A stretch of 64,000 bases of DNA from Candidatus Omnitrophota bacterium (GCA_023819035.1 JAMWCL010000001.1:2226-66225), one strand, 5' to 3'; counted from the stretch's first letter, positions 14,032 to 40,999 are shown. Notes: generated by a model not told the origin, from the letters alone. Numbers and translations are program-made.

Positions 14032-14649
14032 TCAGATTATCTGCCTTAAAACCCTTAAAGCCCGAAAACCCTCCGCATACTTTACCCTTCCTTGGAAACC
14101 CCGAAAATTAGCGCAGGATTGGGCGCTTTCTAAAATCGTAAGGTTCTCTACCTTGGTCTTATCTACCTGTGAAGCATGAATCTTTAATAACTCTAATTTC
14201 TTATCTAAAACATCTTGGATATCCACAAAGATATCCGGTTCAAAATGTTGGGTCGTAGGTACTTCATAAAATAAAACCTCCCGGATATAGCGGGTAGCAG
14301 ATATACCCGCGGAGGCAACCGCTCGATGGTCCTGATGTACATCATCAGGATAATTTAAAAAAACAATATCCGCATTTATTTCTTTTACAACTGTTTCAAT
14401 CTTCTGAATCAATTCCCGATTATCCACCACCTCGGTATCCCTTAAATCTCCCCAGAATAATTTTTTAACCCCTAAAAAGTTTGCTGCTTGAATCTGCTCT
14501 GTTCTTCTTACATAAGGATCGCCCCCAAAGCTTCCATCGGTAATTACCAAAAGAAATATATTATGCCCTGCTTGCTTATATTTAAGTAGCGTTGCCCCGC
14601 AACCAAACTCAATATCATCCGGATGTGCCCCGATCGCTAAGATATTCAT
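14032..14649 (-). CDS. PIG-L/LmbE family N-acetylglucosaminyl deacetylase.
   Basis: NILAIGAHPDDIEFGCGATL N-terminal signature. Confidence 0.8.
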   Translation of the reverse strand: MNILAIGAHPDDIEFGCGATLLKYKQAGHNIFLLVITDGSFGGDPYVRRTEQIQAANFLGVKKLFWGDLRDTEVVDNRELIQKIETVVKEINADIVFLNYPDDVHQDHRAVASAGISATRYIREVLFYEVPTTQHFEPDIFVDIQDVLDKKLELLKIHASQVDKTKVENLTILESAQSCANFRGFQGRVKYAEGFRALRVLRQII

Positions 14650-14653
14650 TTAG

Positions 14654-15367: not shown

Positions 15368-15386
15368 TATTTAACTTAATTCTATA

Positions 15387-18027: not shown

Positions 18028-18030
18028 AAT

Positions 18031-18921: not shown

Positions 18922-20008
18922 TAAGCATCTTTTTTACTGCCTGCATAACATCCTCTGGCGTAATTACCCTTAAACACTTAAGGTCTCTACAGGAGAATCT
19001 CTCACAGGGACGCAGACAATCTACAGGCTTTCTTAAAAGAATATATCTTTCTGGACTTGTGTAAGGAAAGAATTTATCCACATCACCTGGTCCAAAGATA
19101 GCAATTAAAGCTGTATTTACCGCTACCGCAATATGCATGGGTCCGCTATCATTGGTAATAAATAAATTAAGCCGTTCAATTAAGGCAGATAAACCTTTGA
19201 GGGAAAGCTTATCCGCAATAAGAATATTATTTTTAATCTCCTGCTTAAGTCTATCTAAATCCTTTTGTTTAATAATCTCACCAATAATTATCACCTTGCC
19301 TTTATATTCTTCGATTATCCTTTCAGCTAAACCTATCCAATACTCTTTAGGCCATCGGCGACTGGGTCGAAAGGCTCCGGGATTAAGACCAATAAGTAAC
19401 TCCTGAGGCGAAATATTATTATCCCTTAAGAGATCTTCAATTGCTTTTCTCTCCTTAAAACTTAATGGTATCTCTAAACCTTTATCTTTTATCTCTGCAC
19501 CCAATCTCTTAGCTACCCTAAGATTTGCTTCTACTGCATGGAGTTTATCTTGGGTTTTTTCTTCTACTTTAATATTAAAGAAGAATCCCCGACCATCAGT
19601 ATCCCTGCCTACCTTATACTTACTACCAATAAACCAGAATAACAATGCCATCTTTAAAGCACCTTTAAAAGAAGATATCTCTTCTAAGTTAATCAGCATA
19701 TCAAATCTATGGCGATTTAATTCCTTTAAGACCTTAAAGACCCTTAAAAAAGCACCTTTATAAAATAAACTCATTATATCTGTAAAGCGGATATCCAAAG
19801 CAAACACCTCATCTATGTAAGGTAAACCCTTAATAAGATCAGCGGAACGCGAAAGAACTAAAAGCCCTATATAGGCACAGGGAAATAAATTGCGTAATGC
19901 CCTTAAGGTAGGGGTAGCCATAACCAGATCCCCAATCCCTGCCAACTGCACAACCAGGATCTTTTTAACCGCTGGGATTAAGCTTTTATGATTATAAGGT
20001 ATAACCAT
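18905..20008 (-). CDS. Glycosyltransferase family 9 (heptosyltransferase-like).
   Basis: KKILVVQLAGIGDLVMATPTLRAL N-terminus typical of RfaF/WaaC-type GT9. Confidence 0.8.
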   Translation of the reverse strand: MVIPYNHKSLIPAVKKILVVQLAGIGDLVMATPTLRALRNLFPCAYIGLLVLSRSADLIKGLPYIDEVFALDIRFTDIMSLFYKGAFLRVFKVLKELNRHRFDMLINLEEISSFKGALKMALLFWFIGSKYKVGRDTDGRGFFFNIKVEEKTQDKLHAVEANLRVAKRLGAEIKDKGLEIPLSFKERKAIEDLLRDNNISPQELLIGLNPGAFRPSRRWPKEYWIGLAERIIEEYKGKVIIIGEIIKQKDLDRLKQEIKNNILIADKLSLKGLSALIERLNLFITNDSGPMHIAVAVNTALIAIFGPGDVDKFFPYTSPERYILLRKPVDCLRPCERFSCRDLKCLRVITPEDVMQAVKKMLNVRIH

Positions 20009-20010
20009 CT

Positions 20011-21114
20011 TTAGTTTAATTCCTTAAGGATAGCCAATAAATCTTGCGACATCTTTTCGGTAGAAAATTGCCTTGCCCTATTTAAGGCTCTCTGAATCAA
20101 ATCCTTTCTGAGCTCCTCATCGCTAAGCACCTCCTCCATTGCTCTGCGGAGTGCCTCACTGCTATAGGAATTTAAAAGGATACCACTATCACCGACTACC
20201 TCTGATAAAGCAGAAACATTAAAGGCAATAACCGGCAGACCACAGGCCATTGCTTCTAAAACCGGTAGACCAAATCCTTCATATAAAGAAGGAAAGACAA
20301 AAATACTGGCAGAATTGTAGATAAAGCCCAATTCTTCATCATTAACATAACCAGTAAATATAACCTTATCTTTAAGTCCTAAATTCCCAACCAATCTTAT
20401 GAGGTTTTGCTGATCTCTATCCTTCCTGCCTACAAGCACCAGTTTAAATTTATCCTTTAGATTTCCCGGAAGTCTATAATAAGCCTCGATCAAGGTCTTA
20501 ACATTCTTATGAGGCCGGAAGTTTCCCGTATATAAAATAAAACTTTCATCGATACCATATTTAGAAAGAACCTTCTTATCCAGATTATCCATTTTGTAAA
20601 ATCTCCTCTCATCAACCCCCAGCATAATTACCCTGATCTTATCAGGGCTTATCTTAAATACCTTAACTATATCATTTTTTGAATATTCAGAGATAGTAAC
20701 AATCACATCTGCCTTTTTAATTGCTATTTTTAACAATCCTTTAAAATATAAGAAGTTCTTTAGATTCTGATAGCCTTTAAATCTAAATGGGATAAGATCA
20801 TTAATAATTAAAACTAATCTTGCTTTACAAAGTAAAGGAGCCTTATAATAAGGGGTCAAGAAGATATCTACATTATGTTTTTTTAAATAAGCGGGCAGTT
20901 GTACCTGATCCCATAAAGGGGTTATATATTCAGGGATAGATACCTTCTTAATATAGGAAGCCTCGATAGGGGTTTGTGTCTTTTGATTGCAGAAAAGAAT
21001 AAATTCCCAGCCACTTTCATTAACTACCCGTGAGTTTAAAAAATTTATCAGGTACCTGGCGATCCCTGTTGGTTTTGCCTTCTCTAATTCCCGCGCATCA
21101 ATACCTACCCTCAT
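20011..21114 (-). CDS. Glycosyltransferase family 4.
   Basis: [19 protein letters not shown]. Confidence 0.8.
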
Positions 21115-22219
21115 AATCTTTTAACAAGACCTCTTCATACAATCTTTCTGTTAAGGTTACATTTTTTTCAATAGAAAACCTCTCTACTACCTTTTGTCGA
21201 CCAGCCAAACCCATTTTTTTTGCTTCTTCTTCATTGCTTAAAAGCTCTATCAATGCGCACGCCAGTGCCTGCGGATCTTCGGGTGGAACCAAAAGACCAT
21301 CTACCTTATGCTCGATTATCTCTAAATTTCCTCCTACGCGGGTAGCCACTACAGGTAATCCAGTAGACATTGCTTCTAAGATACTTCGGCTGAACCCTTC
21401 GCTTAATGAAGGTAGGCAAAAGATATCCATAATCTTAAGCAAATGCCAAACCTCCTCATAGAATCCCGTAAGAATAAAATGTTCGGTAATCCCTAACTTT
21501 TTTATTTTATCTATAAATTTCATTTTTAGGTTAATATCTCCTTCCCCTACCCACAGAAATTTAACCTCAGGAAAACCTTTAATCACCTCCTTGATAGCAT
21601 AAATTAATGTTTCATAACCTTTTCGGGGGGAAAATCTTCCTAAGGTTCCAATAACCTTCTGAGAAGGTTTAATGCCAAAATAATTCCTTAGATTGAAATC
21701 ATCCTTTCCTGGGCTAAATCTGTTAACATCGACGCCATTATAAATAAGTGCTAACCTATCCTTATTTAACCAAGCAAATCTTTTGGCTACGCTCTTTGAG
21801 ACCACAATTATCTTTTTACAGTGGTAGGCGATAAATCTATCTAACAGAATATCCACATAAGGAATACGCACATGCCAGATAAGGGGTATATTTAATACCT
21901 TATTGACCATACTTGCATATAAGCCAGCGCGGGATGTGTTAGCATGGATTAAATCAATTCTGTGGAGCCTAATAAACTTAAGTAATTTATTTATCGCGTT
22001 AAGAAAAATAAATGGATTTAAACTCTTTAAGGTAGGTAAAGGGATAATCCTGTAGATGATATTAAGCTTTTTGATCTGCTGGCTTAATCTGCCTTCTTCA
22101 GAAACTATCACATAGATATCAAACCTACTGCGATCTATCCTGCGTAATAATTCTATAAGACTTATCTGACCGCCTCCTAATAATCCTTTTGTGTGATCTA
22201 TATAAAGTATCCTATACAT
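21098..22219 (-). CDS. Glycosyltransferase family 4.
   Basis: EGFSRSILEAMSTGLPVVATRVGG. Confidence 0.8.
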   Translation of the reverse strand: MYRILYIDHTKGLLGGGQISLIELLRRIDRSRFDIYVIVSEEGRLSQQIKKLNIIYRIIPLPTLKSLNPFIFLNAINKLLKFIRLHRIDLIHANTSRAGLYASMVNKVLNIPLIWHVRIPYVDILLDRFIAYHCKKIIVVSKSVAKRFAWLNKDRLALIYNGVDVNRFSPGKDDFNLRNYFGIKPSQKVIGTLGRFSPRKGYETLIYAIKEVIKGFPEVKFLWVGEGDINLKMKFIDKIKKLGITEHFILTGFYEEVWHLLKIMDIFCLPSLSEGFSRSILEAMSTGLPVVATRVGGNLEIIEHKVDGLLVPPEDPQALACALIELLSNEEEAKKMGLAGRQKVVERFSIEKNVTLTERLYEEVLLKDYEGRY

Positions 22220-25554: not shown

Positions 25555-26565
25555 TTAGATTTTTTTAGCTACAACACTTAAATTACCACCCAACTTAATT
25601 ATATCCATAAATCTTCCCAAGCCAAAAAAGATAAGATATTCTATATAATGAAAAAATACCTTCCCGGAAGAAAAACTAAAAGGCTTAAGCAAGGTAAAGT
25701 CAACTGGATTGAAATTATCTTCTCTAGATAAGATTGGTCTACAATTATATAACCCGAGATCACCTAAAAGATATCTTAAGCTTTCTGAATATTCAGCCAT
25801 ATATTTAGTATGTGTAGATATAAATTTAAATTCTATAGGAGAGAATTTACAGATTATTAAAATTTTTTCTAATGTGCGACGAGTGAAGTGATATAGATGT
25901 AAAGGAGCACTTATGCCTAACCATTTATCTCTAAAAATAAAAGAAGAAAATCCTCCAAAGTTAGGAACCTCAATAACAACAATCCCATCTTCTTTAAGTA
26001 TCAAATGGATCTTTCTTAAGGTCGCAACCGGATCTCTAAGATGTTCAAGACTGTGGATAAGACTAACTACATCAAAGAACTGCAAAGGATAACTGGCCTC
26101 TTCTATATCTCCACAAGAAATATCTAAACCAAATCTTTCTTTAGCAAACTGCACTGCTTTAGGGTTTAATTCTATCCCATAGGTCTGCCAACCCAAATCT
26201 TTCAAAAATTTTAAAAACAAACCATCCTTACAACCAACATCTAAGATTCTGCCGGATTTTTTATATTTCAAGATAGATCTTGCCTTAAGCTCCATCATAC
26301 TCTGATTAGGCGTTTCCCAAATAAAAGATTTTTTCATTTTGATATTATCGTATATCCGGCTTTGATATTCATTTAAATAATACCGAAAAAGTTCTTGTTT
26401 TATGGGACGGGGGTTAACATATACTAGACCACATGACTTACACTTTACAATCCTAAAGAACCCGCCTTTTTCATTAGTTCTATCTTTGGCAACAAAAAGA
26501 AGTTTTGAATTATCTTTACCACACAGATTACATCCTACAAATTCTTGAAAAGACTTTCTATTCAT
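25555..26565 (-). CDS. Class I SAM methyltransferase with Zn-ribbon (paralog 2).
   Basis: CNLCGKDNSKLLF...CKSCGLVYVNPRP; ILDVGCKDGLF SAM motif. Confidence 0.7.
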   Translation of the reverse strand: MNRKSFQEFVGCNLCGKDNSKLLFVAKDRTNEKGGFFRIVKCKSCGLVYVNPRPIKQELFRYYLNEYQSRIYDNIKMKKSFIWETPNQSMMELKARSILKYKKSGRILDVGCKDGLFLKFLKDLGWQTYGIELNPKAVQFAKERFGLDISCGDIEEASYPLQFFDVVSLIHSLEHLRDPVATLRKIHLILKEDGIVVIEVPNFGGFSSFIFRDKWLGISAPLHLYHFTRRTLEKILIICKFSPIEFKFISTHTKYMAEYSESLRYLLGDLGLYNCRPILSREDNFNPVDFTLLKPFSFSSGKVFFHYIEYLIFFGLGRFMDIIKLGGNLSVVAKKI

Positions 26566-27562
26566 CTATATCCTTCTTTGCGCATACATATAAATTATCT
26601 CCATTACCTATTATGTCCATTAAACCTGCTAATGGATACAATAGGATTGATTCTGCTTTATGTAATACCTTCTTTAGGAGGTCCTTAAGAATCTGTTTAT
26701 CGATTAATGCATAATTTTTAGAAGAGATTGATTTTAGAGAGACATCTCGGGCAGGATACAGGTGATGTTTTCTTAACCAGTAACGCAAACTTTGTGAATA
26801 ACCTGTAGTAATATCTAAATGATTTAAATTTGACATACTGAATAATGCAAGAATTTTAAAACCTGCCTTCTTTAACATTTTCTTTAAGTGATCTTTAGTA
26901 AACTGCATAAGATGACGAGGCACATCTAAAATATGCCAACTATCCTGAAAGAGAATCCTCTGAAAGCTTAAAAAATTAGGTACAGTAATCACTAATATTG
27001 CCTCATCTTTAAGCATATATCTTATTTTTAATAGAATAGAAAGCGGATCATATAAGTGTTCTAAGACCTCAAACATACAGATAATATCAAATAATTCCTT
27101 GCCAGGATTAAAATCAGCAATCGAACCTGTAAATACATCTATACCCAGAACCTCCCTGGCATAATTAGAGGCATACTCTGAGATCTCTACCCCAAATACA
27201 GAATAACCTTTTTCTTTTAAGAACTTAAGAAAAAAGCCTTCACCACAACCTATTTCTAATACCTTTCCTTTTTGCTTATATTTTGAGATTGGCTTATAGC
27301 GATTCTCTAAGATTTTTTTTAACTTAAAGTTATAGATATTACTCAGATTAACCTTGGCAGAAATGCGGGAGAAATATTTAGGTGGATAAAATACCTGGAT
27401 GGCTTGAATGGTTGGCCGGGGATTGACATAGACAAATCCACAAAGATTACACTTTACTACCCTAAAAAACCCATCGATATCCCAAATGATATCTCTGGCA
27501 ATATATACTAACTGCGTATCATCTGCTCCGCATAGATAACAATTTATATATTCTGTCTCCAT
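26558..27562 (-). CDS. Class I SAM methyltransferase with Zn-ribbon (paralog 3, tandem duplicate).
   Basis: CYLCGADDTQLVY...CNLCGFVYVNPRP; VLEIGCGEGFF. Overlaps paralog 2 by 8 nt. Confidence 0.7.
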   Translation of the reverse strand: METEYINCYLCGADDTQLVYIARDIIWDIDGFFRVVKCNLCGFVYVNPRPTIQAIQVFYPPKYFSRISAKVNLSNIYNFKLKKILENRYKPISKYKQKGKVLEIGCGEGFFLKFLKEKGYSVFGVEISEYASNYAREVLGIDVFTGSIADFNPGKELFDIICMFEVLEHLYDPLSILLKIRYMLKDEAILVITVPNFLSFQRILFQDSWHILDVPRHLMQFTKDHLKKMLKKAGFKILALFSMSNLNHLDITTGYSQSLRYWLRKHHLYPARDVSLKSISSKNYALIDKQILKDLLKKVLHKAESILLYPLAGLMDIIGNGDNLYVCAKKDIDE

Positions 27563-29008: not shown

Positions 29009-30910
29009 TTATGTATCCTTTTCTTCAGATTCTTTACCGTAGTATTTATACTTATAGTAATAGTAAGGATAAGAGGTCAATGCTTCGGTCTGCGGTCGAA
29101 TATTATTTAAGACGATACCAGTGATTTTAGCTCCCGCTGATTCCAATTGCGCCTTAGTCCGCAGAAGGGCATCCCTACTTGTTCTTCCAATCTCATATAC
29201 GATAAGGGTGGAATCTACTTTGGATGCCAGGATGCTTGCATCGGTCACCGCAAGTACAGGAGGAGAATCAAAAAGAATTACCTCAAATTTAAACCTTAGT
29301 TGCTCAATTAACATCTCTAACCTCTCCGACTCTAAGAATTCCACAGGATTAAGAGGTATCTGACCAGAAGGAATAATCCAGATATTTTCTATCCCCGGGG
29401 TCTTACTTATCTCCGCAAATCCAATCTCACCTAATATAATATCCGTAAAACCCTTTAAAATCTCCTCTAAACCTGCGGTTGCCATAATGTATTCGCTTAG
29501 ACCAGGCGTCTTCTTTATACCAAAAATCTTAGCCAGATTAGGCCTTCTTAAGTCTGTGGAGACTAAAACCGTCTTTAAACCCGATTGTGCTATAACTATT
29601 CCTAAATTAGAAACCAGACAGGTCTTTCCTTCCGAGGGACAGGAGCTAGTAATCAATACGGTTTTCTTAGAAGCATCGAGTTTAAGATTAACATAAATAT
29701 TGCGAAAGGATTCAGCTGCCGAAGAGGTCGGTTTATAGTGAGCAATTAAACCAACCTTTCTTTTTTCTGTATCGCTTCTCTTTTTTGGGATCAGTGTTTC
29801 TTTTATTCTTTGAAAGGGCTTAGACTTCTTCTCTGATTCTTCTTCAATAGAAGGAATCACTCCAACCACTGGAAGCTTAAGTAAAGATTCCACATCTTGA
29901 ATAGTGCCGATTGAGGTATCTAAGTTTTCTTTTAAGAAAGCAAAGCCTATTCCTAAGATTATCCCCAGAATTGCCCCAATTAATATCCCCGTCTGTTTAT
30001 TTACCGAAACAGAAGAGGTGGGTAAAACCGCAGGGTTAACAATAGCAACATCACCTACCCTCTCTGCTTCTGTAATGCGCGCCTCTTCTAATTTCTCTTT
30101 TAACATTGCATATAATTTACGACTAACCTCTACCTCCCGGTTTAAGCGTGCGTATTCCAACTGCTGTCCTGAAAACCCGCTCATTTGTTTTTCCATCTCT
30201 TCGATCTGACTCCTTAATTGTTTTACCCGGGGATGTTTTTCCGTATACTTACGCAAGGCATCCGCTAATTCAAACTGGAGCTCTACCATCTTCTTTTCAA
30301 TCGGTTCGGCTAACTTTATATTTTTTACCTCCTCTCCAAATTCTTTTAATCTCTCCTCGGACTGTCTTAATCTTTCCTCCAATGAAGCTAACTGTTCTTC
30401 AATAAACTGCCGGGCCTGTCTGAATTGTTTATTCTTTTCCGCTAAGTTATACTGCTCATAAGCCTCAGATACAGCCTTAGCCAACAACATCGCTTCCTGG
30501 GCAGTATCTGCTGAGGCAGTAATCCGAATCATATTACTGTTGCCAACCCGCTCAGTGGTAATGCTGGCTTCTAACTGAGCGATTGCCTTGCTGATCTCTT
30601 CACTATCTGAGTTCTTATCGATTAGATTGATACGTAAAGCCACATCCTTTAAAACATCATAACTTTTAATCGCTTTAAGGTGTGATTCCATAATATCTGC
30701 AGGGTTATAAAGTATCCATTCCGTGAGTAAACCCGCGATGGTCTTACGCTCTTCTATTTTGATTACTGCACTGGCTTGATAAAATACCGGTTGTAAAGAT
30801 ACATAAATTATACTAATCAGAATAACCGCAACAAAGGTCATTACGATGACAACCCGTTGCTTGCGAAAAATGCGAAGATAATCACTAAAATTTAATTCGT
30901 ATTGAGCCAC
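29009..30910 (-). CDS. wzc: Polysaccharide co-polymerase with bacterial tyrosine (BY) autokinase domain (Wzc-like).
   Basis: Wzz-type N-terminal transmembrane/coiled-coil region. P-loop SSCPSEGKTCLVSNLG. C-terminal tyrosine cluster YPYYYYKYKYY. Confidence 0.8.
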   Translation of the reverse strand: MAQYELNFSDYLRIFRKQRVVIVMTFVAVILISIIYVSLQPVFYQASAVIKIEERKTIAGLLTEWILYNPADIMESHLKAIKSYDVLKDVALRINLIDKNSDSEEISKAIAQLEASITTERVGNSNMIRITASADTAQEAMLLAKAVSEAYEQYNLAEKNKQFRQARQFIEEQLASLEERLRQSEERLKEFGEEVKNIKLAEPIEKKMVELQFELADALRKYTEKHPRVKQLRSQIEEMEKQMSGFSGQQLEYARLNREVEVSRKLYAMLKEKLEEARITEAERVGDVAIVNPAVLPTSSVSVNKQTGILIGAILGIILGIGFAFLKENLDTSIGTIQDVESLLKLPVVGVIPSIEEESEKKSKPFQRIKETLIPKKRSDTEKRKVGLIAHYKPTSSAAESFRNIYVNLKLDASKKTVLITSSCPSEGKTCLVSNLGIVIAQSGLKTVLVSTDLRRPNLAKIFGIKKTPGLSEYIMATAGLEEILKGFTDIILGEIGFAEISKTPGIENIWIIPSGQIPLNPVEFLESERLEMLIEQLRFKFEVILFDSPPVLAVTDASILASKVDSTLIVYEIGRTSRDALLRTKAQLESAGAKITGIVLNNIRPQTEALTSYPYYYYKYKYYGKESEEKDT

Positions 30911-31028: not shown

Positions 31029-31820
31029 TTGTTTTATATGAGATATATATTAGAATTTAATAAGGTTACAAAAATCTTTTATCCTCCTTTTTCCTTTAAA
31101 AACCCCTTAGATTTTCTTTCCTCCCAAAAAGCTATCCTTGCCCTCAATAATATCACCTTCCAGCTTCGGGAGGGGGTAATCTTAGCGGTCCTTGGACCAA
31201 ACGGCGCAGGCAAAACCACCCTGCTTAAGATTATCTCAACCTTAATCCTGCCTGATTCAGGAACAGTCAAGATAAAAGACTTAATCTTAGGCAAGGATGA
31301 CTTAAGGATTAAATCCTTAATAGGATGGGTTGGCTCTTCGGAGAGGGGATTTTATCCAAGGCTTACCGGAAGACAGAATTTAGAGTTCTTTGCTTGTCTT
31401 TATGGACTAGATAAAAAAAAGATAAATCTACGTCTTCAAGAACTCTTTAAATTTTTTAAGATAGACTACCAAGATAAGCGCTTTGATACCTATTCTTCAG
31501 GCATGCAACAAAAATTTGCTTTGATGCGTGCGCTTCTACATGATCCGGAATTATTACTTTTAGATGAACCCTTAAAGAGTCTTGATTATACCACCGCACT
31601 AAATTTAAGAAATTTTATTAAAGAACATTTGGTAAAGGAAAAAAACAAAACGGTCATCTTTACTACCCATCGCATGGAAGAGGCGGTTGACTTTGCAGAC
31701 TTATTTATGATCCTGGTAAAAGGCTATCTTTATGGCTTGGGGACATTATCCGAGTTGAGAAAAAAGGTTAATAATCCTTCAGCAACCCTAAGTGAGATAT
31801 TCTTAAAATTAACCCAGTAG
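31029..31820 (+). CDS. ABC transporter ATP-binding protein.
   Basis: Walker A GPNGAGKTTLLKII, signature SGMQQK, Walker B LLLLDEP. Confidence 0.8.
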   Translation: MFYMRYILEFNKVTKIFYPPFSFKNPLDFLSSQKAILALNNITFQLREGVILAVLGPNGAGKTTLLKIISTLILPDSGTVKIKDLILGKDDLRIKSLIGWVGSSERGFYPRLTGRQNLEFFACLYGLDKKKINLRLQELFKFFKIDYQDKRFDTYSSGMQQKFALMRALLHDPELLLLDEPLKSLDYTTALNLRNFIKEHLVKEKNKTVIFTTHRMEEAVDFADLFMILVKGYLYGLGTLSELRKKVNNPSATLSEIFLKLTQ

Positions 31821-31824
31821 AACT

Positions 31825-32634
31825 GTGTGGTTAAGAAAGATAATCGGTTTTTTAAAAAAGGATTTTCTATTAGAATCCAGTTATCGCTTCAGTTTTTTCT
31901 TTGATATCTTTGGCATCCTCATAAATATCTCTATCTATTTTTTTATTGACCGGCTCTTTGAACAAAGATTGGTAGCGCATCTAGAAGAATTTGGTGTAAA
32001 TTATTTCTCTTATGTTATCTTAAGTTCAGCGGCATTTAGTTATATCGGAATCGGTATGGGGTCCTTTGCAGAACGCATCCGTAGCGAACAGGTCCAGGGC
32101 ACATTAGAGACAATCCTTGTTACCCCCACAAGGACTGCGGTGCTTGTTTTTTCTCTTATAATATGGAGCCTGTTTTCTGCTACCTTGGAATTATTTATGT
32201 ATATAACCTTAGGAATCTTTTTATTTAAAATAGATCTTACCCATCTAAATATCTTATCCTGCATAATTACCCTTTTGCTTATTATTATCTCCTTTAGTAG
32301 CCTGGGGATAATCTCGGCAAGCTTTCTTATTGTTTTTAAACGGCTAAACCCCTTAAGTTGGTTGATAGGAAGTTTAGAAGGGCTTCTTGGAGGGGTTTAT
32401 TTTCCGATCACGGTATTACCGGGCTGGCTACAGTTTATTGCGCGGTTCTTTCCGATTACCTATGCTATCCGTGCTATCCAGTTAGCTGTCTATAAAGGTT
32501 ATCACCCTATGCAACTAAGCAGGGAGCTGGGTTTTCTCTTTCTATTTTCAATCTTACTTTTACCTATAAGCATCTTTATATTCTGGAAGAGTCTATATAG
32601 GTCTAGAAAAACCGGCACCTTAGCGCATTATTAA
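31825..32634 (+). CDS. ABC-2 type transporter permease.
   Basis: 269 aa with 6 transmembrane helices, starting 4 nt after the ATPase gene. Confidence 0.7.
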   Translation: MWLRKIIGFLKKDFLLESSYRFSFFFDIFGILINISIYFFIDRLFEQRLVAHLEEFGVNYFSYVILSSAAFSYIGIGMGSFAERIRSEQVQGTLETILVTPTRTAVLVFSLIIWSLFSATLELFMYITLGIFLFKIDLTHLNILSCIITLLLIIISFSSLGIISASFLIVFKRLNPLSWLIGSLEGLLGGVYFPITVLPGWLQFIARFFPITYAIRAIQLAVYKGYHPMQLSRELGFLFLFSILLLPISIFIFWKSLYRSRKTGTLAHY

Positions 32635-34941
32635 AGCCTTTGGAAGAAAAAGAGAGGCGCGCTTAACCCTTTCCCAATAGCCTGCGGGCGTCATCTTTGG
32701 GGGAAAAAGCGAACGGAATAAAAACCTTAATCTTTGCTTTAGATTCTTTTGGTCTGACAAATATACCGCATAATAAAGAGGTATTTTTTGATGCTTCCCT
32801 TTAAGCACTGAATTTAAAAAAACCTTCTCTAAGTAACTTAACCTTTCTGGCTTTATACAAGAAAAAACCTGCGGAGGCACTTCAGCAGAAAAGATCTCTT
32901 TTACCAGATAAAGACTAAGATAAACAATTCGAGTAAGGTTAAATTCCTCAGAGAGATTCATCAGCTTCTCCCAATCTATCCTCTCCTGATAAACCTGAAT
33001 TAACCTGCTTATCTCCCAGAGAAAAACCCAGTTTTGATAATTATGCTTCAGGCTATGCTCACACATAAAGATTATCTGCATCTCAGGATTAAGACAGAAG
33101 ATATTTTGGTAATGCTTAAAAGGGATAACCTCTAACCAAACCTTATCCATATCTATCTTATTTTTCTGGGTAATCAGTAAAAATAGATTATTTATGGGAT
33201 TAAGATGGATATGTAAGGCAGGATAAGAACTATCCTTATGGAAATAATAACGACTATTTAGGTGTTCGGGAATCGGATAAACCTGCAGTTCTTGTAAATA
33301 AGAATAACCCTTTTCTTTAACCGCCTCCTCTAACCTAAAGATATCCTTTTCTTTTACAACCAGATCTATATCTGAGCGCGGACGCAGATAACCCTGCGGG
33401 TAGATCAATATATCTATAGATGGACCTTTAATAAGCAATATTTTTATACAGAGGGTATCTAAATACTTAAGCAGTTCGGTCAGATGCTGGGTAAAATAAA
33501 TACTTTTTGCCATCTCAGTATAATAGGCATCTCTAAAATTCTCAGATACATATTCATCAAAAAGATTATATTGCCTGTGTAAGGAATAAATCTGTTGATA
33601 AAAAGGATAAAAAACAAGTTCTTTTTTGGTCTTATCTAAGATATAGCTCCAATCCATCGCAGGTTGCTTTATCCTTTTTAATATCTCAGCCGAATCCCTT
33701 AAACCCCTTCCACTGATAAGATCAATGATCAACCTATCCTCTTCTTTATTATCTGTGTGGACAGGTTTATCCCTTAAGATGAGCTCAGCGATATGGATAC
33801 CCCCTTCAAGATTGGTCTTTATTAACCTCAGGCCTGCGGTCTTAAATTCCTTTTCTATCTCCTTAATATTAGAAAAGATATGGCAGAAACACATGCTATT
33901 CATCTTACTTAGTGGTGAAACCGTCCTTATCCAGATATCCCCTGGCTCAAGAAAATAATGCGGAAAAAGACAGTTTAATATCTTGCGAAAAAGTCTATAA
34001 AATGTATTAAAGGATAAAAATTTATTATTTGCTATATAAGCACCAAAAAAGATTAAGCCATCTGGCTTAAGGCATCTTTTAATGCGTAAAAGGGTTTTAA
34101 TCCGCAAGGTGCGCGAGGGAATAAAGGAATAAAGGATTCGATCAAATAAACAGTAATCAAATGTGCAGGAAGGAAAATCTATCTCAGAAGCAGAAACTAA
34201 TTTAAAATGGATATCTAATCCTTGCGCTTTGGCTTTGCTCTGTGCCTTTTTGATCATCTCAGGTGCGATATCTATGGCAGTGACCTTAAAACCTAATTTG
34301 GCTAAGGCAAGTGCTTCCCTGCCAGCTCCGCAACCAAGATGAAGTATGGAAGTGCCCTCCTTAAGATACTCCTTAACCATTATCCTCTCCCATTCCTCCA
34401 AACCTAAATCCGCATTTTGCCCACAAAAATCTACCTCCTCTTTCTGATTAAATTTATCCCTTACAGTAGATAAGGACTTTTGGGGACTGCTGATTAAAAA
34501 CTTAAGGTTAAATGCAAAATTCAATTTTAAGCCCAGCGACCTACGCTTTAACAAAAATAGACACAATCCCTTAAAAACAGGAAGACAATTCCATATAGAT
34601 TTAAGCAGATAATCCCAGGGATCTTCGATATTAATTAACTGCTTAGACCTTTTCAAAAAAATTACCTTGCCTAAAATATCCTCAAAGGGTACAGTTAAAT
34701 CAATCTTATCCGTAAAATCTCCTTGAAATATATAATAGAGCTTACCCTTAAAATTCCTTATTTCTATTAAACGATGTACTACATTTTCTTGGGTATCCTT
34801 ATTCTTATATGCAAGGATATCTCCTAATCTTATATCTGTATTTGCGGTTAGGGGTTGCACAAAGACTAAATCGCCCTCTTTAATCAAGGGTTCCATACTT
34901 ACACCCTTTGCCTGGAAGGTAAGAATATTTGGTTTTTCCAT
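32620..34941 (-). CDS. Tri-domain fusion protein: S24/S26-like serine peptidase, class I SAM methyltransferase, PF14907-type (NTP_transf_5) nucleotidyltransferase.
   Basis: N-terminus KGVSMEPLIKEGDLVFV (Ser nucleophile block). Middle ILHLGCGAGREALALAKLGFKVTAIDIAPEMI. C-terminus LLIKGPSIDILIYPQGYLRPRSDIDLVV (hG[GS]...DxD nucleotidyltransferase fold). Confidence 0.7.
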   Translation of the reverse strand: MEKPNILTFQAKGVSMEPLIKEGDLVFVQPLTANTDIRLGDILAYKNKDTQENVVHRLIEIRNFKGKLYYIFQGDFTDKIDLTVPFEDILGKVIFLKRSKQLINIEDPWDYLLKSIWNCLPVFKGLCLFLLKRRSLGLKLNFAFNLKFLISSPQKSLSTVRDKFNQKEEVDFCGQNADLGLEEWERIMVKEYLKEGTSILHLGCGAGREALALAKLGFKVTAIDIAPEMIKKAQSKAKAQGLDIHFKLVSASEIDFPSCTFDYCLFDRILYSFIPSRTLRIKTLLRIKRCLKPDGLIFFGAYIANNKFLSFNTFYRLFRKILNCLFPHYFLEPGDIWIRTVSPLSKMNSMCFCHIFSNIKEIEKEFKTAGLRLIKTNLEGGIHIAELILRDKPVHTDNKEEDRLIIDLISGRGLRDSAEILKRIKQPAMDWSYILDKTKKELVFYPFYQQIYSLHRQYNLFDEYVSENFRDAYYTEMAKSIYFTQHLTELLKYLDTLCIKILLIKGPSIDILIYPQGYLRPRSDIDLVVKEKDIFRLEEAVKEKGYSYLQELQVYPIPEHLNSRYYFHKDSSYPALHIHLNPINNLFLLITQKNKIDMDKVWLEVIPFKHYQNIFCLNPEMQIIFMCEHSLKHNYQNWVFLWEISRLIQVYQERIDWEKLMNLSEEFNLTRIVYLSLYLVKEIFSAEVPPQVFSCIKPERLSYLEKVFLNSVLKGKHQKIPLYYAVYLSDQKNLKQRLRFLFRSLFPPKMTPAGYWERVKRASLFLPKALIMR

Positions 34942-34942: not shown

Positions 34943-35806
34943 TTAAAATATCTTTTTTATAAAATCTACTATTCTACGGTCAGGATAAAAACCTAATTCA
35001 TATACCGGGATATGCCAGATTAATTCTCTATAAAAATCTAAAACAAAATCCATAGCTTGCTTATCCCACCAGGGAACGAGGCTACAAACTAAAAGCTTGC
35101 TGATTGCTTCTGAAAGAGACATCCTTTTTATATGATTTCTCTGGGCATGCCTAAGCAGAAAGAGCCCTTTTAAATTAGCCTCTTCAGAGGAATAAACCTG
35201 AACATCTCCATGCCAGGGTGTACCAAAGACCTGAAATCCAGTATCCTTCTTTCTAAGAATAACTCGCTCATCGCTTAAAATAGAAAGATCATTCTTAAGT
35301 AAGCTGGCTAAGGTGCTTTTTCCCATCCCTGAGCTACCTGCAAAAAGAATGCCTTCGGTATCCTTTTTTATCCCACAACTATGAAGCATTACCCCTAACC
35401 GGCGATAGGTAAGTAATCCTAAAAATAGAACCTCATCTAAAGGATATTCCCAGAAATTAAGCATAAACCCTTCTGGAAGGTCTTCCCTTAAATAAACCTC
35501 TCCCGAACGAAAATCCCTCTCAATCACCGCCATCTTATATAAATTCGGCTTTAAGTCCAGAGAATAAAAATTAAAGATAAGTTTTTTATCCCGGTAAAAG
35601 ACATCCCACTGCCGGTAAGCACTAAAGAGCTTTTTTTGATTTTTAAAAAAAGGAAGGTAACGTTTAAGCTTTAATACGAGATCTGCACTTTTTTTTGAGA
35701 CAAAGCCAAGATAAGCCTTCGGAGGGGTAAGGGTAAGATTATCCTCACCAAGAAGCTCAACTACAATATCTGCAATGGCAAATCTAAATTTATCATTTTT
35801 GCCCAT
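34943..35806 (-). CDS. HPr kinase-related (HprK C-terminal domain-like) peptide kinase.
   Basis: P-loop GILFAGSSGMGKSTLASLL resembling the HprK GxSGxGKSE motif. 287 aa, no HprK N-terminal domain. Confidence 0.7.
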   Translation of the reverse strand: MGKNDKFRFAIADIVVELLGEDNLTLTPPKAYLGFVSKKSADLVLKLKRYLPFFKNQKKLFSAYRQWDVFYRDKKLIFNFYSLDLKPNLYKMAVIERDFRSGEVYLREDLPEGFMLNFWEYPLDEVLFLGLLTYRRLGVMLHSCGIKKDTEGILFAGSSGMGKSTLASLLKNDLSILSDERVILRKKDTGFQVFGTPWHGDVQVYSSEEANLKGLFLLRHAQRNHIKRMSLSEAISKLLVCSLVPWWDKQAMDFVLDFYRELIWHIPVYELGFYPDRRIVDFIKKIF

Positions 35807-35848: not shown

Positions 35849-36013
35849 TCAGGAGCCTACGGTTTTACTTGTGCAAGCCGATGAAGACCGACATCTTGCT
35901 GGTGACTTATTTGTTCCAGAGGCAGATTTGCAGTTAGCTAAGACCACCTCGGGGGGAACTAAATCTACCTGTTTTATCTGGGGTTTAAGATAGGGCTTTT
36001 TCCCCGGCTTCAT
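35849..36013 (-). CDS. Candidate RiPP precursor peptide (54 aa; absent from the ORF track).
   Basis: ATG at 36013-36011 overlaps the rSAM stop codon as ATGA. Strong Shine-Dalgarno AAAGGAGGAGG 4 nt upstream. Translation: MKPGKKPYLKPQIKQVDLVPPEVVLANCKSASGTNKSPARCRSSSACTSKTVGS. Lys/Pro-rich leader-like N-terminus; Cys/Ser/Thr-rich C-terminal core. Confidence 0.45.
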   Translation of the reverse strand: MKPGKKPYLKPQIKQVDLVPPEVVLANCKSASGTNKSPARCRSSSACTSKTVGS

Positions 36014-37388: not shown

Positions 37389-38222
37389 TTACCAGGTCTG
37401 TATTTCCTTACTTGTATAGGCACCCTTGGCAAGGGGCTCTAAAACCTGATTAAGAAAGTAAGTTAGATTAGAGATAAATTTTTTGGGGATAAAGATGATA
37501 TCTTCTGCTTGCAAACTGATATTCTGACGCAGATCACCCTTTAATGCCTTGGTTAGATTCAGTCTCTTAGCCTGGGGTTTTTCAAAACCTCCCCGGATCA
37601 AGATTACACTGGAAGCCACTGCGTCGCGCGTAAAACCACCCGCCAGCCCGATTGCCTCTAAAATAGTCCTTGCTCCACTAACCGCATAAACCCCCGGTCT
37701 GACCACCTCACCTAAAACAATCACCTTTTTACCACCTAACTTCTTTAAAGAAATAGAGACCTCAGGAAAACGGATATACTCTTTTAACCGCTCAGTAATT
37801 ATCTCATCAAGTTGGCTAAGGGTTAATCCCTTTGCCGGAATATCGCCAATCAAAGGAAAGGATATCCTTCCGTCTGGTCTTACAATTACATCCATCGTTA
37901 AATCCGGATTCTGCCAGACCAAAATATATAAAACATCATCCTCACCGATAATGTACTCGGTTTGTATCGGTTTTTCTGCGGGTTTGCTGGTTAAGGGGGT
38001 TACCCCTTCTTTAGTCTCCGATTCCTTTTCCTTTAAAATCTCGATTGCCTTTTGAAATTCCTCTTGTGCCTCAGTGTATCTACCTTGATCGTAATAAATC
38101 TTTCCTCTTTCATAATATTTAAGCGCCTCATCTCTTCTTTCCTGGCTGTAAACAAAGGGAGTAAAAACTAAAAATAAAATAATAATTATTATCCTTTTTA
38201 AAAGAGGCATTCCTTTAAACAT
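37389..38222 (-). CDS. Polysaccharide export protein (Poly_export + SLBB, Wza/KpsD-like periplasmic) with N-terminal TPR.
   Basis: Signal peptide; IIGEDDVLYILVWQNPDL...RPDGRISFPLIGDIPAKGLTLSQL...SISLKK...VIVLGEV. Confidence 0.7.
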   Translation of the reverse strand: MFKGMPLLKRIIIIILFLVFTPFVYSQERRDEALKYYERGKIYYDQGRYTEAQEEFQKAIEILKEKESETKEGVTPLTSKPAEKPIQTEYIIGEDDVLYILVWQNPDLTMDVIVRPDGRISFPLIGDIPAKGLTLSQLDEIITERLKEYIRFPEVSISLKKLGGKKVIVLGEVVRPGVYAVSGARTILEAIGLAGGFTRDAVASSVILIRGGFEKPQAKRLNLTKALKGDLRQNISLQAEDIIFIPKKFISNLTYFLNQVLEPLAKGAYTSKEIQTW

Positions 38223-39262
38223 TCCTCAATATAAACCTCTGGCTTCTGGGATAAATCAATCTGCTTGGGTTGGGTTAATCTCTTTCCTGTAGAATCTAAG
38301 ACTACCTCTACCACTGGTCGCAAAGGAAGCTGGGGATTCTCTTTAATTACTGTGCCTATCTCTTTGGTATTTAATCTCACCGCCACCCCTATAGGAAAGA
38401 TACCCATCCTTTCCATAAGCACCTTTATCAGTTTATTATCGAAGGTTTCTTTAAGTTCTAAAATCTTCTGGATTGCCTCTAAGGGGGTGTACTTTTGACG
38501 ATGAGGCCTTTTATGTAAGAGCGCCTCATAAACATCTAATAAACCGATAATCCGAGCATACTCCGAGATCTGCTCACCCTTTAATCCCAAAGGATAACCC
38601 GAGCCATCTATCCGTTCGTGTTCCTGACGCACCGCCTCGATTATCGAGACATTCAAATCTTTAGAAAATCTTGTTAATATCTGGGAGCCAAGATTGGGAT
38701 GATTCTTTATCTTATCCATCTCTTCTTTACCTAAGATGTAATTCTTATTAATGATATCTAAATACTTCACTATCCCGATATCATGGACAAAGGCGGCAAT
38801 TCCTAACTCTAAGAGTTGCTCTCTTTCATAGCCCAATGACCTGCCAATCTCTAAAGACATGATACAAACATTTAAGGCATGGGCATAAAGATAATCTTCC
38901 TCTTTGTCATAATCCTTAACCGAAAGTCTCAGTAACGCCTCTTTATTTGGAGAAAAAAGAACCTGCAGGATCTTTTCTATTAGCTCCTTTATCCAAGGAA
39001 CAAAACATTCTTCCTGCCCCCTTAAATAAATATGTTTTACCCGCGCCAGAATCTCTTCGTATAAAGAAAAAATCTCGTTACTTTCTATCTTAGAAAAGCT
39101 CTTACAAATAGCCGGGGATATCTTTATAGGAATATGGTCAGATTCTGAACTAGGCTTTTCTGGAAGGGCGGTTTCATTCTCTTCCTGCTCTATCTCTTCA
39201 GGTACAGGTGTCTTTTTAAGAAGTCCTTTATATTTTTTTAAAATCTCAGAAAGCCTCAACAT
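38198..39262 (-). CDS. HD-GYP domain c-di-GMP phosphodiesterase.
   Basis: HDIGIVKY and HERIDGSGYP motifs. Confidence 0.8.
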   Translation of the reverse strand: MLRLSEILKKYKGLLKKTPVPEEIEQEENETALPEKPSSESDHIPIKISPAICKSFSKIESNEIFSLYEEILARVKHIYLRGQEECFVPWIKELIEKILQVLFSPNKEALLRLSVKDYDKEEDYLYAHALNVCIMSLEIGRSLGYEREQLLELGIAAFVHDIGIVKYLDIINKNYILGKEEMDKIKNHPNLGSQILTRFSKDLNVSIIEAVRQEHERIDGSGYPLGLKGEQISEYARIIGLLDVYEALLHKRPHRQKYTPLEAIQKILELKETFDNKLIKVLMERMGIFPIGVAVRLNTKEIGTVIKENPQLPLRPVVEVVLDSTGKRLTQPKQIDLSQKPEVYIEECLKECLF

Positions 39263-39273: not shown

Positions 39274-40113
39274 TTATTTGGGTAAAGGTCCTAAATCTTG
39301 AAGACCACCCGCGGAGCTTAAATCTTCGTTTACCTTCAGGATAGTGTCTCGGTCAATAAACTTTAAACCATTACCAAAACCAGTTAATAAGGCTAAATCG
39401 CAGATGGTATTAATTAAGCGGGGAACTCCCCGCGAAAAATGATAGATCTGACCAAAACAATCCTCCTGAAAAATCTCCCTTTTTGCCTCTGCTACCCTAA
39501 GCCGATGCAGGATATATTCTTTAGTTTCAATTTCATTTAATGCTTTAAGATGAAAACGCATCGCCATGCGTTGATTTAACTGAGGCAGATTAACAATAAT
39601 ATCCTTTAACTCCGGCTGGCCTAAAAGGATAATCGTAAGTAAAAAAACATTATCGAGTTGAAAATTTAAAAGGAGTCTTAATTCCTCAAAGATCTCCCTA
39701 TTCCCAATTGCCTGGGCTTCATCAACCACAATTACACAATGCCTTGCTTGCTGATAGTTAGTGTACAAGATGTTATGCAAAGAATGAAATAAATCTAACC
39801 TATTTGTAGGGATCTCATTACTATTTAACTGATACACAATCTCCTGAATTAATTCTAATCCACTGAGTCGAGGATTCAGGATAAATACCGCCTGGTATTT
39901 GTTTTCCTGTTGAAGCTCATGCCAGAGCACCCGACTTAAAAGGGTCTTACCACTTCCATACTCACCTGTAAAAATGGCAGCCCCTTTTCGCTCCCGGACA
40001 ACATAAAGCATCCTTGCTAATGCCTCATTATGTTGCTGGGAATGATAAAGAAACCTCGGATCAGGGGTATTATCAAAAGGCTTCTCCTTTAAACCCCAGT
40101 ATTCCTCGTACAA
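39274..40113 (-). CDS. ExeA/GspA-like AAA ATPase (paralog B).
   Basis: Walker A GEYGSGKTLLSRVL, Walker B VIVVDEAQ. Confidence 0.65.
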   Translation of the reverse strand: MYEEYWGLKEKPFDNTPDPRFLYHSQQHNEALARMLYVVRERKGAAIFTGEYGSGKTLLSRVLWHELQQENKYQAVFILNPRLSGLELIQEIVYQLNSNEIPTNRLDLFHSLHNILYTNYQQARHCVIVVDEAQAIGNREIFEELRLLLNFQLDNVFLLTIILLGQPELKDIIVNLPQLNQRMAMRFHLKALNEIETKEYILHRLRVAEAKREIFQEDCFGQIYHFSRGVPRLINTICDLALLTGFGNGLKFIDRDTILKVNEDLSSAGGLQDLGPLPK

Positions 40114-40126
40114 TTCTTCTCTCCTT

Positions 40127-40999
40127 TTAAAGACTATTCTTATGTAAAAGTTGATCCCGGCGTGTCCAGCCGGTCCTGATCTCTTCCTCCACTATCTGAC
40201 GCACACAATCAGCATCTACTACTACCTTATTCTTCAGTACCAGATTTTTTAAGCACTTATGACAGAGCATGGTTATCTGACGGGGATAGCCTCGGCTATA
40301 TTGATAGATCTGCCGTATTGCTTCCTCTAAAAAAAGATGCATACTGGCTTTATAACCCGCCTGTCTTATGCGAAATTCAATCATCTCCTTTGCTTCTGCA
40401 AAATCTAAAGGGTTAAGGGTATATTTAAAGCTTATGCGGTCAAAAAAATTGGGGATATTCATAATCTTAGCATGCAGTTCCAATTGACCTAACAATACCA
40501 ATTGCAGAAGCTTAAACTCATTGGTTTCATAATTTAAAAGAACACGGAGAACCTCTAAAGATGCATCACTTAATTTCTGTGCTTCGTCAATAATTAAGGT
40601 GATAATCTTATTTTCACTTACGCCTTTTTGAAAAAGAAACCTCTCCACCGCTTCCCTAAGATCTAAGATAGTAGCTGGTTTATCTGAGGAAGGTAAGGCA
40701 ATCTCAAAATTTCTTACTAAAGAAGTAAGAAACATATATTCATCATCAAAAGAAGGGTCTAAAATAATGTGAAAGATAAAATCTCCCCTTGCCTTTAATT
40801 CCTGAATAAGTTTGCGGGAAAGGGTGGTCTTTCCGGTTCCGATATCTCCTAAGATAACCGAAAGCCCCCTTTTAAGTCTAAGTTCAATGAGGATATTAGT
40901 TAAGGCGGTCTGGTGTTCCTTAGAGAGATAAAAGAAGTCAGGGTCAGGGCTAGTGGAGAAAGGCTCTTTTTCAAAACCTAATATTCGATAATAGCTCAT
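40127..40999 (-). CDS. ExeA/GspA-like AAA ATPase (paralog A).
   Basis: Walker A GDIGTGKTTLSRKL, Walker B LIIDEAQ; tandem with paralog B. Confidence 0.65.
   Translation of the reverse strand: MSYYRILGFEKEPFSTSPDPDFFYLSKEHQTALTNILIELRLKRGLSVILGDIGTGKTTLSRKLIQELKARGDFIFHIILDPSFDDEYMFLTSLVRNFEIALPSSDKPATILDLREAVERFLFQKGVSENKIITLIIDEAQKLSDASLEVLRVLLNYETNEFKLLQLVLLGQLELHAKIMNIPNFFDRISFKYTLNPLDFAEAKEMIEFRIRQAGYKASMHLFLEEAIRQIYQYSRGYPRQITMLCHKCLKNLVLKNKVVVDADCVRQIVEEEIRTGWTRRDQLLHKNSL

Follow-up and report, generated by a model that had tools for sequence, protein, structure and literature searches.

SipW-like serine peptidases were recognised only in 2026 as leader peptidases of peptides that are ribosomally synthesized and then post-translationally modified (RiPPs). 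The clusters of the linear polyphosphorylated peptides (LPPs) of Bacillota encode LppS, LppB, LppK, LppN and LppD and were found by way of the SipW-like signal peptidase LppS (Popov et al., Nat Commun 2026, PMC13381572). They lie in capsule loci and share a conserved set of a TIGR02228 peptidase, PqqD, an HprK-like kinase and NTP_transf_5, the nucleotidyltransferase (NTase) domain being so named in Supplementary Data 2, and LPPs were called restricted to Bacillota (PMC13381572). LppS removes the leader solely in the presence of the RiPP recognition element (RRE), and the substitutions S29A, H68A and D93A abolish cleavage; the LPP kinase polyphosphorylates a single Ser (PMC13381572). A comparable toolkit occurs in phosphorylated lasso peptides: in the case of pseudomycoidin the NTase PsmN requires a DxD pair, and the phosphorylated Ser at the C-terminus receives from it one hexose or two, and fusions of the NTase to the lasso leader peptidase B2, an unrelated peptidase, are already known (PMC6993621, PMC8498205).

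The locus described here lies in a 64,000-nucleotide (nt) stretch of DNA from a Candidatus Omnitrophota bacterium (JAMWCL010000001.1:2226-66225; henceforth the window). Its central gene encodes a 773-amino-acid (aa) protein in which an LppS-type peptidase, a methyltransferase (MTase) and a PF14907 (NTP_transf_5) NTase are joined in a single chain. With a probability of roughly 0.65, this protein would be a trifunctional maturation enzyme, born of the fusion of adjacent genes, for a 54-aa ribosomal peptide encoded two genes upstream.

Three domains in a single polypeptide

A prior sequence-only reading of this region had proposed a three-domain polypeptide at 32620-34941, and Pfam and NCBIfam matches bear this out at precisely these positions, the domain scores and a 773-codon open reading frame (ORF) in DNA of 37% GC lying far beyond chance. 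The GenBank counterpart, MCM8800422.1, comes from a Candidatus Omnitrophota metagenome-assembled genome (MAG), is labelled 'signal peptidase I' and forms a singleton cluster, also at 90% clustering. The S26-type peptidase domain is followed by helices up to about aa 180, and then by the MTase and PF14907 domains (Table 1). The first part of the helical linker aligns with the C-terminal helices of LppS, and the linker also holds a KFNQKEEVDF motif that is conserved across the peptidase-MTase subfamily.

Sequence profile analysis of the N-terminal domain recovered a match of TIGR02228 (archaeal-type signal peptidase I) to aa 13-95 with 60.0 bits (curated cut-off 51.85), a marginal match of the Pfam model Peptidase_S24 (aa 6-60, 24.6 bits against a cut-off of 23.3) and only 34 bits, against a cut-off of 190, for the SipW model NF046067. 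In a BLASTP comparison of LppS (WP_029196374.1) with aa 1-140, aa 11-134 aligned with 28% identity over 125 residues (E 2e-15), pairing S29/S15, H68/H56, D87/D75 and D93/D81 of LppS and the fusion protein, respectively. A hidden Markov model (HMM) built from 13 Bacillota LppS sequences scored the fusion protein at 62 bits (E 3e-19) and also matched about 66 further homologues at up to 91 bits. On these comparisons the N-terminal domain is a clear homologue of LppS. Its KGVSMEP block (aa 12-18) places Ser15 within an S-M-x-P nucleophile motif, and alignment with human SEC11A equates GVS15MEP with the catalytic-Ser motif, VVH56RLIEI with IVHRVLKI and QG-D75 with KGD, the SEC11A residues around the aligned sites being Ser56, His96 and Asp116. 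In an alignment of 65 homologues Ser15 is retained in 89%, His56 in 94%, Arg57 in 97% and Gly74-Asp75 in 95%, with a second acidic residue falling at Asp81, which in the closest subfamily lies at +6 or +7 after Asp75.

LexA and the bacterial signal peptidase I use a Ser/Lys pattern, whereas Sec11 and SipW (S26B) use Ser/His/Asp. The sequence-only reading had expected the former and had named the lack of the general-base Lys as one ground on which its proposal would fall. Alignment confirmed Ser15 and found the Lys to be missing: where SEC11A and LppS are aligned with the domain, a His takes the place of the base, and no Lys is present among the conserved columns of the 65 sequences. The Ser/Lys dyad was hence rejected in favor of Ser15, His56, Asp75 and Asp81, with His56, in an invariant 'HR' motif, as the general base. 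The predicted catalytic pattern is the Ser/His/Asp type of the S26B peptidases (Sec11, SipW and LppS), in which His56 together with Asp75/Asp81 would serve as in those enzymes; the missing Lys, although it matches the stated ground to the letter, does not refute catalysis.

The C-terminal assignment of the same reading held firmly, NTP_transf_5 (PF14907) matching aa 428-684 with 111 bits (E 7e-32) against a cut-off of 31.2. Residues invariant in this domain are Lys505-Gly506, Tyr514, Arg520, Asp524-x-Asp526 and His633, with His629 nearly so; Asp524 and Asp526 are invariant in alignments of both 50 and 52 sequences. By inference rather than by alignment, Asp524-x-Asp526 is likely to be the equivalent of D134/D136 of PsmN. 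A search of the PF14907 family profile against the PDB gave no match at E<=10. By its profile match the domain can be placed in the family of LppN and, going by the description of the latter, of PsmN.

Class I MTase models match aa 185-375 of the middle region (E down to 3.5e-17), with Methyltransf_25, _11 and _31 covering aa 199-299 at E values of 1e-15 to 1e-17. Motif I reads LHLGCGAGREA, and its G203-C-G-A-G207 as well as the acidic Asp224 are invariant in the subfamily. In Foldseek searches the modelled domain lies nearest to class I enzymes of a generic kind, with CypM, LahSB and phosphoethanolamine N-methyltransferases among them. A C-F-C-H motif (aa 351-354, window 33877-33888) and a GDxWxRxVSP motif (aa 334-343) are both invariant in the eight closest peptidase-MTase proteins and more weakly conserved across the wider set; these could form a metal or substrate site particular to this MTase subfamily.

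A single-sequence AlphaFold model of the fusion protein (mean pLDDT 34) was not usable, and a model based on an alignment of 150 sequences was confident for aa 10-377 only (pLDDT above 90). In that alignment MAFFT had set the NTase domains of homologues on the MTase domain of the query, and this misregistration left the NTase region without depth, making that part of the model unreliable and the near-invariance of D224 in that alignment an artefact. Foldseek searches against the PDB recovered methyltransferases only, with no fold match for the peptidase or NTase parts.

Relatives and likely origin of the fusion

A HMMER search of 1.84 billion cluster representatives recovered 122 proteins at E<=1e-30, and the best 150 were sorted by domain. 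Among these, about 60 carried the NTase alone, 49 were peptidase-NTase, 13 peptidase-MTase, 3 MTase-NTase and 2 MTase-peptidase proteins, and the query alone showed the order peptidase-MTase-NTase. As any second protein of this kind would rank near the top of the list, the triple architecture appears to be unique. Word-indexed protein searches gave 3 matches with the full-length protein and none with the N-terminal 156 aa, while a profile gave 16, nearly all of them peptidase-MTase proteins. In at least nine of the peptidase-NTase proteins, of 617-745 aa, a GNAT acetyltransferase domain sits between the two. Thus, the architecture, which the sequence-only reading did not recognise, is indeed found only here in its exact triple form; its peptidase-NTase, peptidase-GNAT-NTase and peptidase-MTase parts are nevertheless common in relatives, and a scheme of peptidase, optional capping-type domain and NTase recurs.

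The peptidase-GNAT-PF14907 proteins are P0006, P0011, P0013, P0018, P0022, P0025, P0058, P0093 and P0096 (e.g. L003:8001-9995). Their GNAT domain occupies exactly the position of the MTase domain of the window protein, and one of the GNAT clusters includes a protein of Omnitrophota, MCK4994626.1. In P0101 (889 aa, L005:9001-11670), found in three independent assemblies, the peptidase-PF14907 unit is fused to a Wza-type protein with Poly_export and SLBB domains, a puzzling topology because a cytoplasmic enzyme dependent on nucleoside triphosphates (NTPs) is here joined to a periplasmic or outer-membrane protein.

The fusion protein is collinear with the products of two adjacent genes of locus L002, a peptidase-MTase (47.6% identity, aa 16-388) and an NTase (41.6%, aa 400-766). 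The split order of ScmC-like gene, extra MTase, peptidase-MTase (382 aa) and NTase is found in L001, L002, L009, L010, L011, L016 and L017, and partly in L018. Where the fusion protein has its junction, these split relatives have a stop codon and a short intergenic stretch; the junction itself is in frame throughout without a frameshift. In L002, L009 and L010 the peptidase-MTase and NTase genes lie in one frame, separated by 3, 69 and 12 nt, respectively, so that the loss of one stop codon would have been enough for fusion. The triple protein is probably a lineage-specific joining of neighboring genes. The extra gene between the ScmC-like and peptidase-MTase genes of the closest relatives encodes an MTase-like protein of 404-425 aa (L001:3007-4230, L002:3527-4741, L009:6734-8011, L010:4845-6065) and is absent from the window. 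It was considered as a second copy of the peptidase and rejected, since it gave no BLASTP match to the query and jackhmmer found only an MTase domain in it.

The taxonomy of the carriers is known only from two Omnitrophota accessions, two profile scans of genome contigs having found no true relatives.

Locus organization and the precursor peptide

The gene neighborhood of the fusion is that of a RiPP cassette embedded in a polysaccharide locus (Table 1). On the minus strand the genes follow in the order HD-GYP-like, Wza, PqqD, radical S-adenosylmethionine (SAM)/SPASM enzyme, 54-aa ORF, ScmC/HprK-like protein and fusion, beyond which lie the convergent ABC-2 exporter and genes for a Wzc-like protein, Wzy_C, two methyltransferases, a flippase and glycosyltransferases. 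The genes from PqqD to the fusion are tightly packed (gaps of -4 to 42 nt): the precursor ORF overlaps the stop codon of the radical SAM gene by 4 nt and 1 nt lies between the ScmC-like gene and the fusion gene, the 3' end of which is in turn overlapped by that of the exporter over 15 nt. The PqqD protein of the window shows 29% identity to LppB over 55 aa.

Table 1. Positions, in window coordinates, of the fusion gene, its parts and the genes around it
Feature	Position	Strand	Basis
Whole fusion gene, 773 aa, ATG start	32620..34941	-	ORF call, domain searches
LppS/SipW-type (S26B) peptidase beta-barrel, aa 1-105	34627..34941	-	TIGR02228, SEC11A and LppS alignments
Candidate catalytic residues	Ser15 34897-34899; His56 34774-34776; Asp75 34717-34719; Asp81 34699-34701	-	alignment
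Helical linker, aa 106-180	34402..34626	-	alignment, structure model
Class I SAM-dependent MTase domain, aa 183-377	33811..34395	-	Pfam, structure model
Fusion junction/linker, aa 378-398 (…LRDKPVHTDNKEE…)	33748..33810	-	comparison with split relatives
PF14907 (NTP_transf_5) domain and C-terminal helical extension, aa 399-773	32623..33747	-	Pfam, alignments
HprK-related/ScmC-like P-loop protein, 287 aa, with Walker A GSSGMGKST; putative peptide Ser kinase	34943..35806	-	weak HMM; Pfam ScmC on orthologues
Predicted precursor, 54 aa, MKPGKKPYLKPQIKQVDLVPPEVVLANCKSASGTNKSPARCRSSSACTSKTVGS	35849..36013	-	ORF call, synteny, motif comparison
Radical SAM/SPASM enzyme, 358 aa	36010..37086	-	domain searches
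PqqD-family RRE, 94 aa	37087..37371	-	Pfam E 3e-20
Convergent ABC-2 exporter: ATPase 31029-31820, permease 31825-32634	31029..32634	+	domain searches
Wza-like polysaccharide export protein (Poly_export and SLBB), adjoins cassette upstream	37389..38222	-	domain search
Wzz/GNVR/tyrosine-kinase (Wzc-like) protein, adjoins cassette downstream	29009..30910	-	domain search

Counterparts of the precursor occupy the matching position in 11 further loci. Each of the 12 precursors carries a [YW]xxPx[ILVM] motif and a junction of the form L-[AT]-[NSGA]-C-[KR], contains exactly three Cys and ends in Ser, the rest of the leader following the pattern xx[VI][DEK]Lxxx[ED]xxL[AT][NSGA]C[KR]. The window precursor has its YxxPxI motif at aa 8-13 and its junction at L25-A26-N27|C28, and its terminal residue is Ser54. 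The [YW]xxPx[ILVM] motif is the one bound by lasso and LPP RREs. LppS cuts behind F-E-T, where position -3 is hydrophobic and position -1 is small and polar, and by analogy leader cleavage is most likely to occur at L25-A26-N27|C28. Alternatively, cleavage might follow C-[KR], which would give an x-[AT]-S start similar to the 'xxS' of the LPPs. As a phosphorylation site the invariant, C-terminal Ser54 is the best candidate and Ser32, in a conserved x[AT]SG, the second. A precursor that invariably ends in Ser suits the paeninodin-type HprK kinases, which are specific for a C-terminal Ser (PMC6993621, PMC8498205). In L005 gene calling had overlooked the 54-aa precursor ORF (MQGKKPYKKPAISRIELKSEDAVLTACKTNRSGPGRSTWCRSSGTKCKTRQQGS, L005:7680-7844), and this ORF overlaps a 293-aa gene, at the end of the latter, which jackhmmer identifies as the radical SAM enzyme.

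The arrangement with Wza upstream and ABC-2 and Wzc downstream also occurs in L003, L004 and L009, and partly in L005 and L007-L010, an ABC-2 exporter being present at the matching position in L001, L003, L004 and L007-L010. A second module lies upstream of the cassette at L003:2330-5610, L004:2072-5586 and L010:328-2692, and comprises PqqD and a B12-binding radical SAM enzyme (523-685 aa), with a TPR protein in L003 and L004 too; the window is without such a module. In L016 (4657-5346) and L017 (2343-3032) the NTase ORF after the peptidase-MTase gene is just 117 aa long and is followed by another PqqD gene, which may represent a truncated NTase or a rearranged cassette.

Several other genes of the window were recorded in the course of this analysis. 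Directly upstream of Wza there are two AAA_22 (ExeA-like) ATPases in tandem (39274-40999, minus strand) and an HD_5 (HD-GYP-like) gene (38198-39262, minus strand); L002-L005 and L009 likewise have genes of one or both kinds upstream of the cassette. Two tandem paralogous Methyltransf_23 methyltransferases of about 335 aa (25555-27562, minus strand), each with an N-terminal CxxC…CxxC zinc-ribbon-like segment, are encoded within the polysaccharide genes, which at 12993-22219 (minus strand) further include those for a PF00953 (WecA/MraY-type) glycosyl-phosphate transferase, three GT4 glycosyltransferases and a GT9 heptosyltransferase-like protein. At 4176-6368 (minus strand) lies a gene for a protease-like CHAT-domain protein of 730 aa that carries a long TPR array and bears no relation to the fusion cassette.

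Predicted pathway, alternatives and known systems

A maturation pathway may be inferred from these associations, in every chemical step as well as in the cleavage site and the order of steps. The PqqD protein would bind the leader through Y8-x-x-P11-x-I13, upon which the radical SAM/SPASM enzyme would cross-link the three conserved Cys, probably as thioethers. The HprK/ScmC-like P-loop protein might then phosphorylate Ser54 or, alternatively, Ser32, and the PF14907 domain would derivatise this phosphate through a metal site at Asp524-x-Asp526, as PsmN does with hexose. The middle domain is predicted to methylate the peptide, candidate acceptors being the new N-terminal amine, the C-terminal carboxylate or a phosphate-borne group. 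Cleavage of the leader, most likely between Asn27 and Cys28, would fall to the LppS-type peptidase (Ser15/His56/Asp81, with Asp75 in the GD motif), and the ABC-2 transporter would export the product. The alternation of an MTase, a GNAT or no domain beside the leader peptidase suggests capping of the freshly exposed amine; the MTase-NTase fusions would equally permit action of the MTase on a phosphate-linked group. The combination of leader removal with tailoring of the 54-aa peptide, as envisaged in the sequence-only reading, is supported by the homology to LppS, the PF14907 family membership and the synteny of the cassette; the de-nucleotidylation entertained there is without support.

Several observations weigh against this reading. 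The kinase candidate matches HprK_rel_A, HprK_rel_B and ScmC at 28-32 bits only, against cut-offs of 125-200, and its search against the PDB gives nothing beyond a P-loop. The peptidase domain is without the N-terminal helix of about 15-18 aa that LppS and most homologues carry, as is the entire closest subfamily of 381-382 aa; in LppS this helix contacts the RRE-leader sheet and E6 and I10 mutants cleave poorly (PMC13381572). The precursor lacks the remaining LPP leader motif (HQxIxFET|xxS), and its spacing from the Tyr to the junction is 4 residues longer. The structural neighbors of the MTase domain span enzymes acting on the N-terminus (CypM), on the C-terminus (LahSB) and on small molecules, and so point to no single acceptor. 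As to the NTase, LppN was inactive in the published heterologous host (PMC13381572), the reaction of PsmN is unsettled (PMC6993621, PMC8498205) and the corresponding part of the structure model cannot be relied upon.

Of the alternatives, the one that survives best, unlikely as it is, holds that the MTase and NTase act on an exopolysaccharide or lipid-linked precursor, or join the phosphopeptide to either, the cassette being part of the Wza/Wzc machine. This would be consistent with the flanking of the cassette by Wza and Wzc genes in the window, L003, L004 and L009, with the fusion of a peptidase-NTase protein to Wza itself in P0101, with the ABC-2 type of the transporters, which is that exporting glycans, and with the location of the Bacilli LPP clusters likewise inside capsule loci (PMC13381572). 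However, an RRE, a precursor and a leader peptidase co-occur strictly with these enzymes, which argues for the peptide as the substrate, and PsmN works on the phospho-Ser of a peptide in E. coli without a dedicated polysaccharide locus (PMC6993621, PMC8498205).

A slightly lower probability attaches to the fusion being an artefact, in which a base error in a single MAG contig erased the stop codon between separate peptidase-MTase and NTase genes. The exact architecture is a singleton among the cluster representatives and in its own 90% cluster, all of the 7-8 closest loci carry split genes, and in three of them a single substitution could fuse the two genes across the short in-frame gaps. Against this, the junction linker is uninterrupted and in frame, and the window also lacks the extra MTase gene, which suggests real divergence over a point error. 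Peptidase-NTase fusions, direct or via GNAT, are moreover frequent and occur in independent samples, which argues that the fused state is functional.

A further scenario, to be regarded as doubtful, makes the cassette a built-in module of the Wza/Wzc exporter that produces a peptide-tagged or peptide-primed polysaccharide rather than a free antibiotic-like peptide. The cross-linked peptide would be phosphorylated on its C-terminal Ser, PF14907 would activate the phosphate by transfer of a nucleoside monophosphate, as in the synthesis of nucleoside diphosphate sugars, and the phosphopeptide would be joined via a phosphodiester to the exopolysaccharide or a lipid-linked precursor sugar. The exchangeable middle domain (none, GNAT or MTase) would serve to cap the amine that the fused leader peptidase uncovers.

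Loss of the docking helix might have turned the peptidase domain into a remnant that is non-catalytic or independent of the RRE, the leader being cut by another protease, but this is improbable. The helix is missing both here and in the whole 381-382-aa subfamily, and its mutants at E6 and I10 are impaired in LppS; yet the helix contacts are only moderately conserved and their interaction was called secondary (PMC13381572). Within the helix-less subfamily Ser15, Met16, Pro18, His56, Arg57, Gly74 and Asp75 are invariant, and this invariance of Ser15, His56, Asp75 and their neighbors points to purifying selection on the active site; furthermore, the cassettes contain no other peptidase.

That the domain is an ordinary secretory signal peptidase I, joined by chance to unrelated enzymes, is hardly credible: the TIGR02228 score above the curated cut-off and the GenBank annotation agree with it, but the N-terminus has no membrane anchor, with only 14 polar residues before Ser15 and an in-frame stop 5 codons upstream of the ATG. 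The fusion partners of the domain, moreover, are cytoplasmic domains that depend on SAM and NTPs, and it sits in a PqqD/radical SAM/precursor cassette and is nearer to the RiPP leader peptidase LppS. An N-terminal extension hidden by a frameshift was also considered and rejected, as stops occur in every upstream frame.

The preferred reading, of a trifunctional enzyme maturing the 54-aa peptide, gains wider interest from the recurrence of its parts. Peptidase-X-NTase fusions, where X is nothing, GNAT or MTase and once Wza, constitute natural "Rosetta stone" evidence, their recurrence implying that leader cleavage, capping and the PF14907 reaction are physically coupled. The single-chain fusion offers a compact construct for probing PF14907 chemistry, an issue for PsmN and LppN alike. 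The main value of the locus is as a lead to that chemistry and to the link between such peptides and exopolysaccharide export.

With the MEROPS S26B peptidases (Sec11/SEC11A, Bacillus subtilis SipW and TIGR02228) the fusion protein shares the SMxP Ser, the 'HR' His, the GD motif and a second Asp six residues on; it differs from the signal peptidases of this group in being without an anchor, cytoplasmic and joined to tailoring enzymes, with a RiPP leader as its predicted substrate. The SynChlorMet cassette (ScmC-ScmF, TIGR04248-04251) similarly has a ScmC-like protein, a PqqD homologue and PqqE-like radical SAM/SPASM proteins as neighbors. However, the window has one radical SAM enzyme rather than two, the peptidase and NTase fall outside the Scm definition, and all four SynChlorMet models score far below their cut-offs (ScmC 28 against 125, ScmD 22 against 100, ScmF 79 against 400 and ScmE 67 against 400 bits). 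The radical SAM/SPASM thioether RiPPs (sactipeptides and ranthipeptides) share the PqqD-type RRE, the SPASM enzyme and a Cys-containing core, but those classes comprise neither the putative kinase nor the NTase nor the S26B peptidase. The RiPP methyltransferases CypM (N-terminal) and LahSB (C-terminal) share the class I fold at 16-19% identity, with no pointer to the same acceptor.

Paeninodin/pseudomycoidin lasso tailoring (PadeK/PsmK and PsmN; PMC6993621, PMC8498205) resembles the present system in combining a kinase, here putative, and an NTase with a precursor ending in Ser; PsmN needs the DxD motif which is kept in the fusion, and peptidase-NTase fusions (B2-NTase) occur there too. Unlike in those systems, the window operon has neither a lasso cyclase nor a B2 cysteine protease, and its peptidase has the S26B fold whereas theirs is transglutaminase-like. 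A lasso cluster was rejected because no Asn-synthetase-like cyclase or B2 peptidase was found among the genes at 23-41 kb of the window and ten ORFs between 0.6 and 22.2 kb.

The LPP clusters share the most with the window: an LppS-family peptidase with the S/H/D triad, a discrete PqqD RRE, a PF14907 enzyme, a precursor with an N-terminal (K)KxYxxPx[VI], and a capsule or exopolysaccharide locus; for their HprK-like kinase the window has a candidate with weak matches. The differences are that the host belongs to Omnitrophota rather than Bacillota, that peptidase, MTase and NTase reside on one chain, that the peptidase is without the N-terminal helix, that the window has a radical SAM/SPASM enzyme and a core with three Cys in addition, and that the exporter is of the two-gene ABC-2/DrrAB-like type rather than MsbA-like. 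The leader, moreover, shares only YxxPxI of YxxPxVLxHQxIxFETxxS, and the conserved Ser is C-terminal in the window family as opposed to core position 3 in LPPs. The window cassette, judged by its gene content and motifs, is an Omnitrophota variant of the LPP/phospho-lasso tailoring toolkit. Together with roughly 20 metagenomic relatives it indicates that the set of LppS-type peptidase, RRE, kinase-like protein and PF14907 enzyme extends to Omnitrophota, where a Wza-Wzc polysaccharide operon combines it with a radical SAM/SPASM enzyme and a precursor that has three Cys and ends in Ser.

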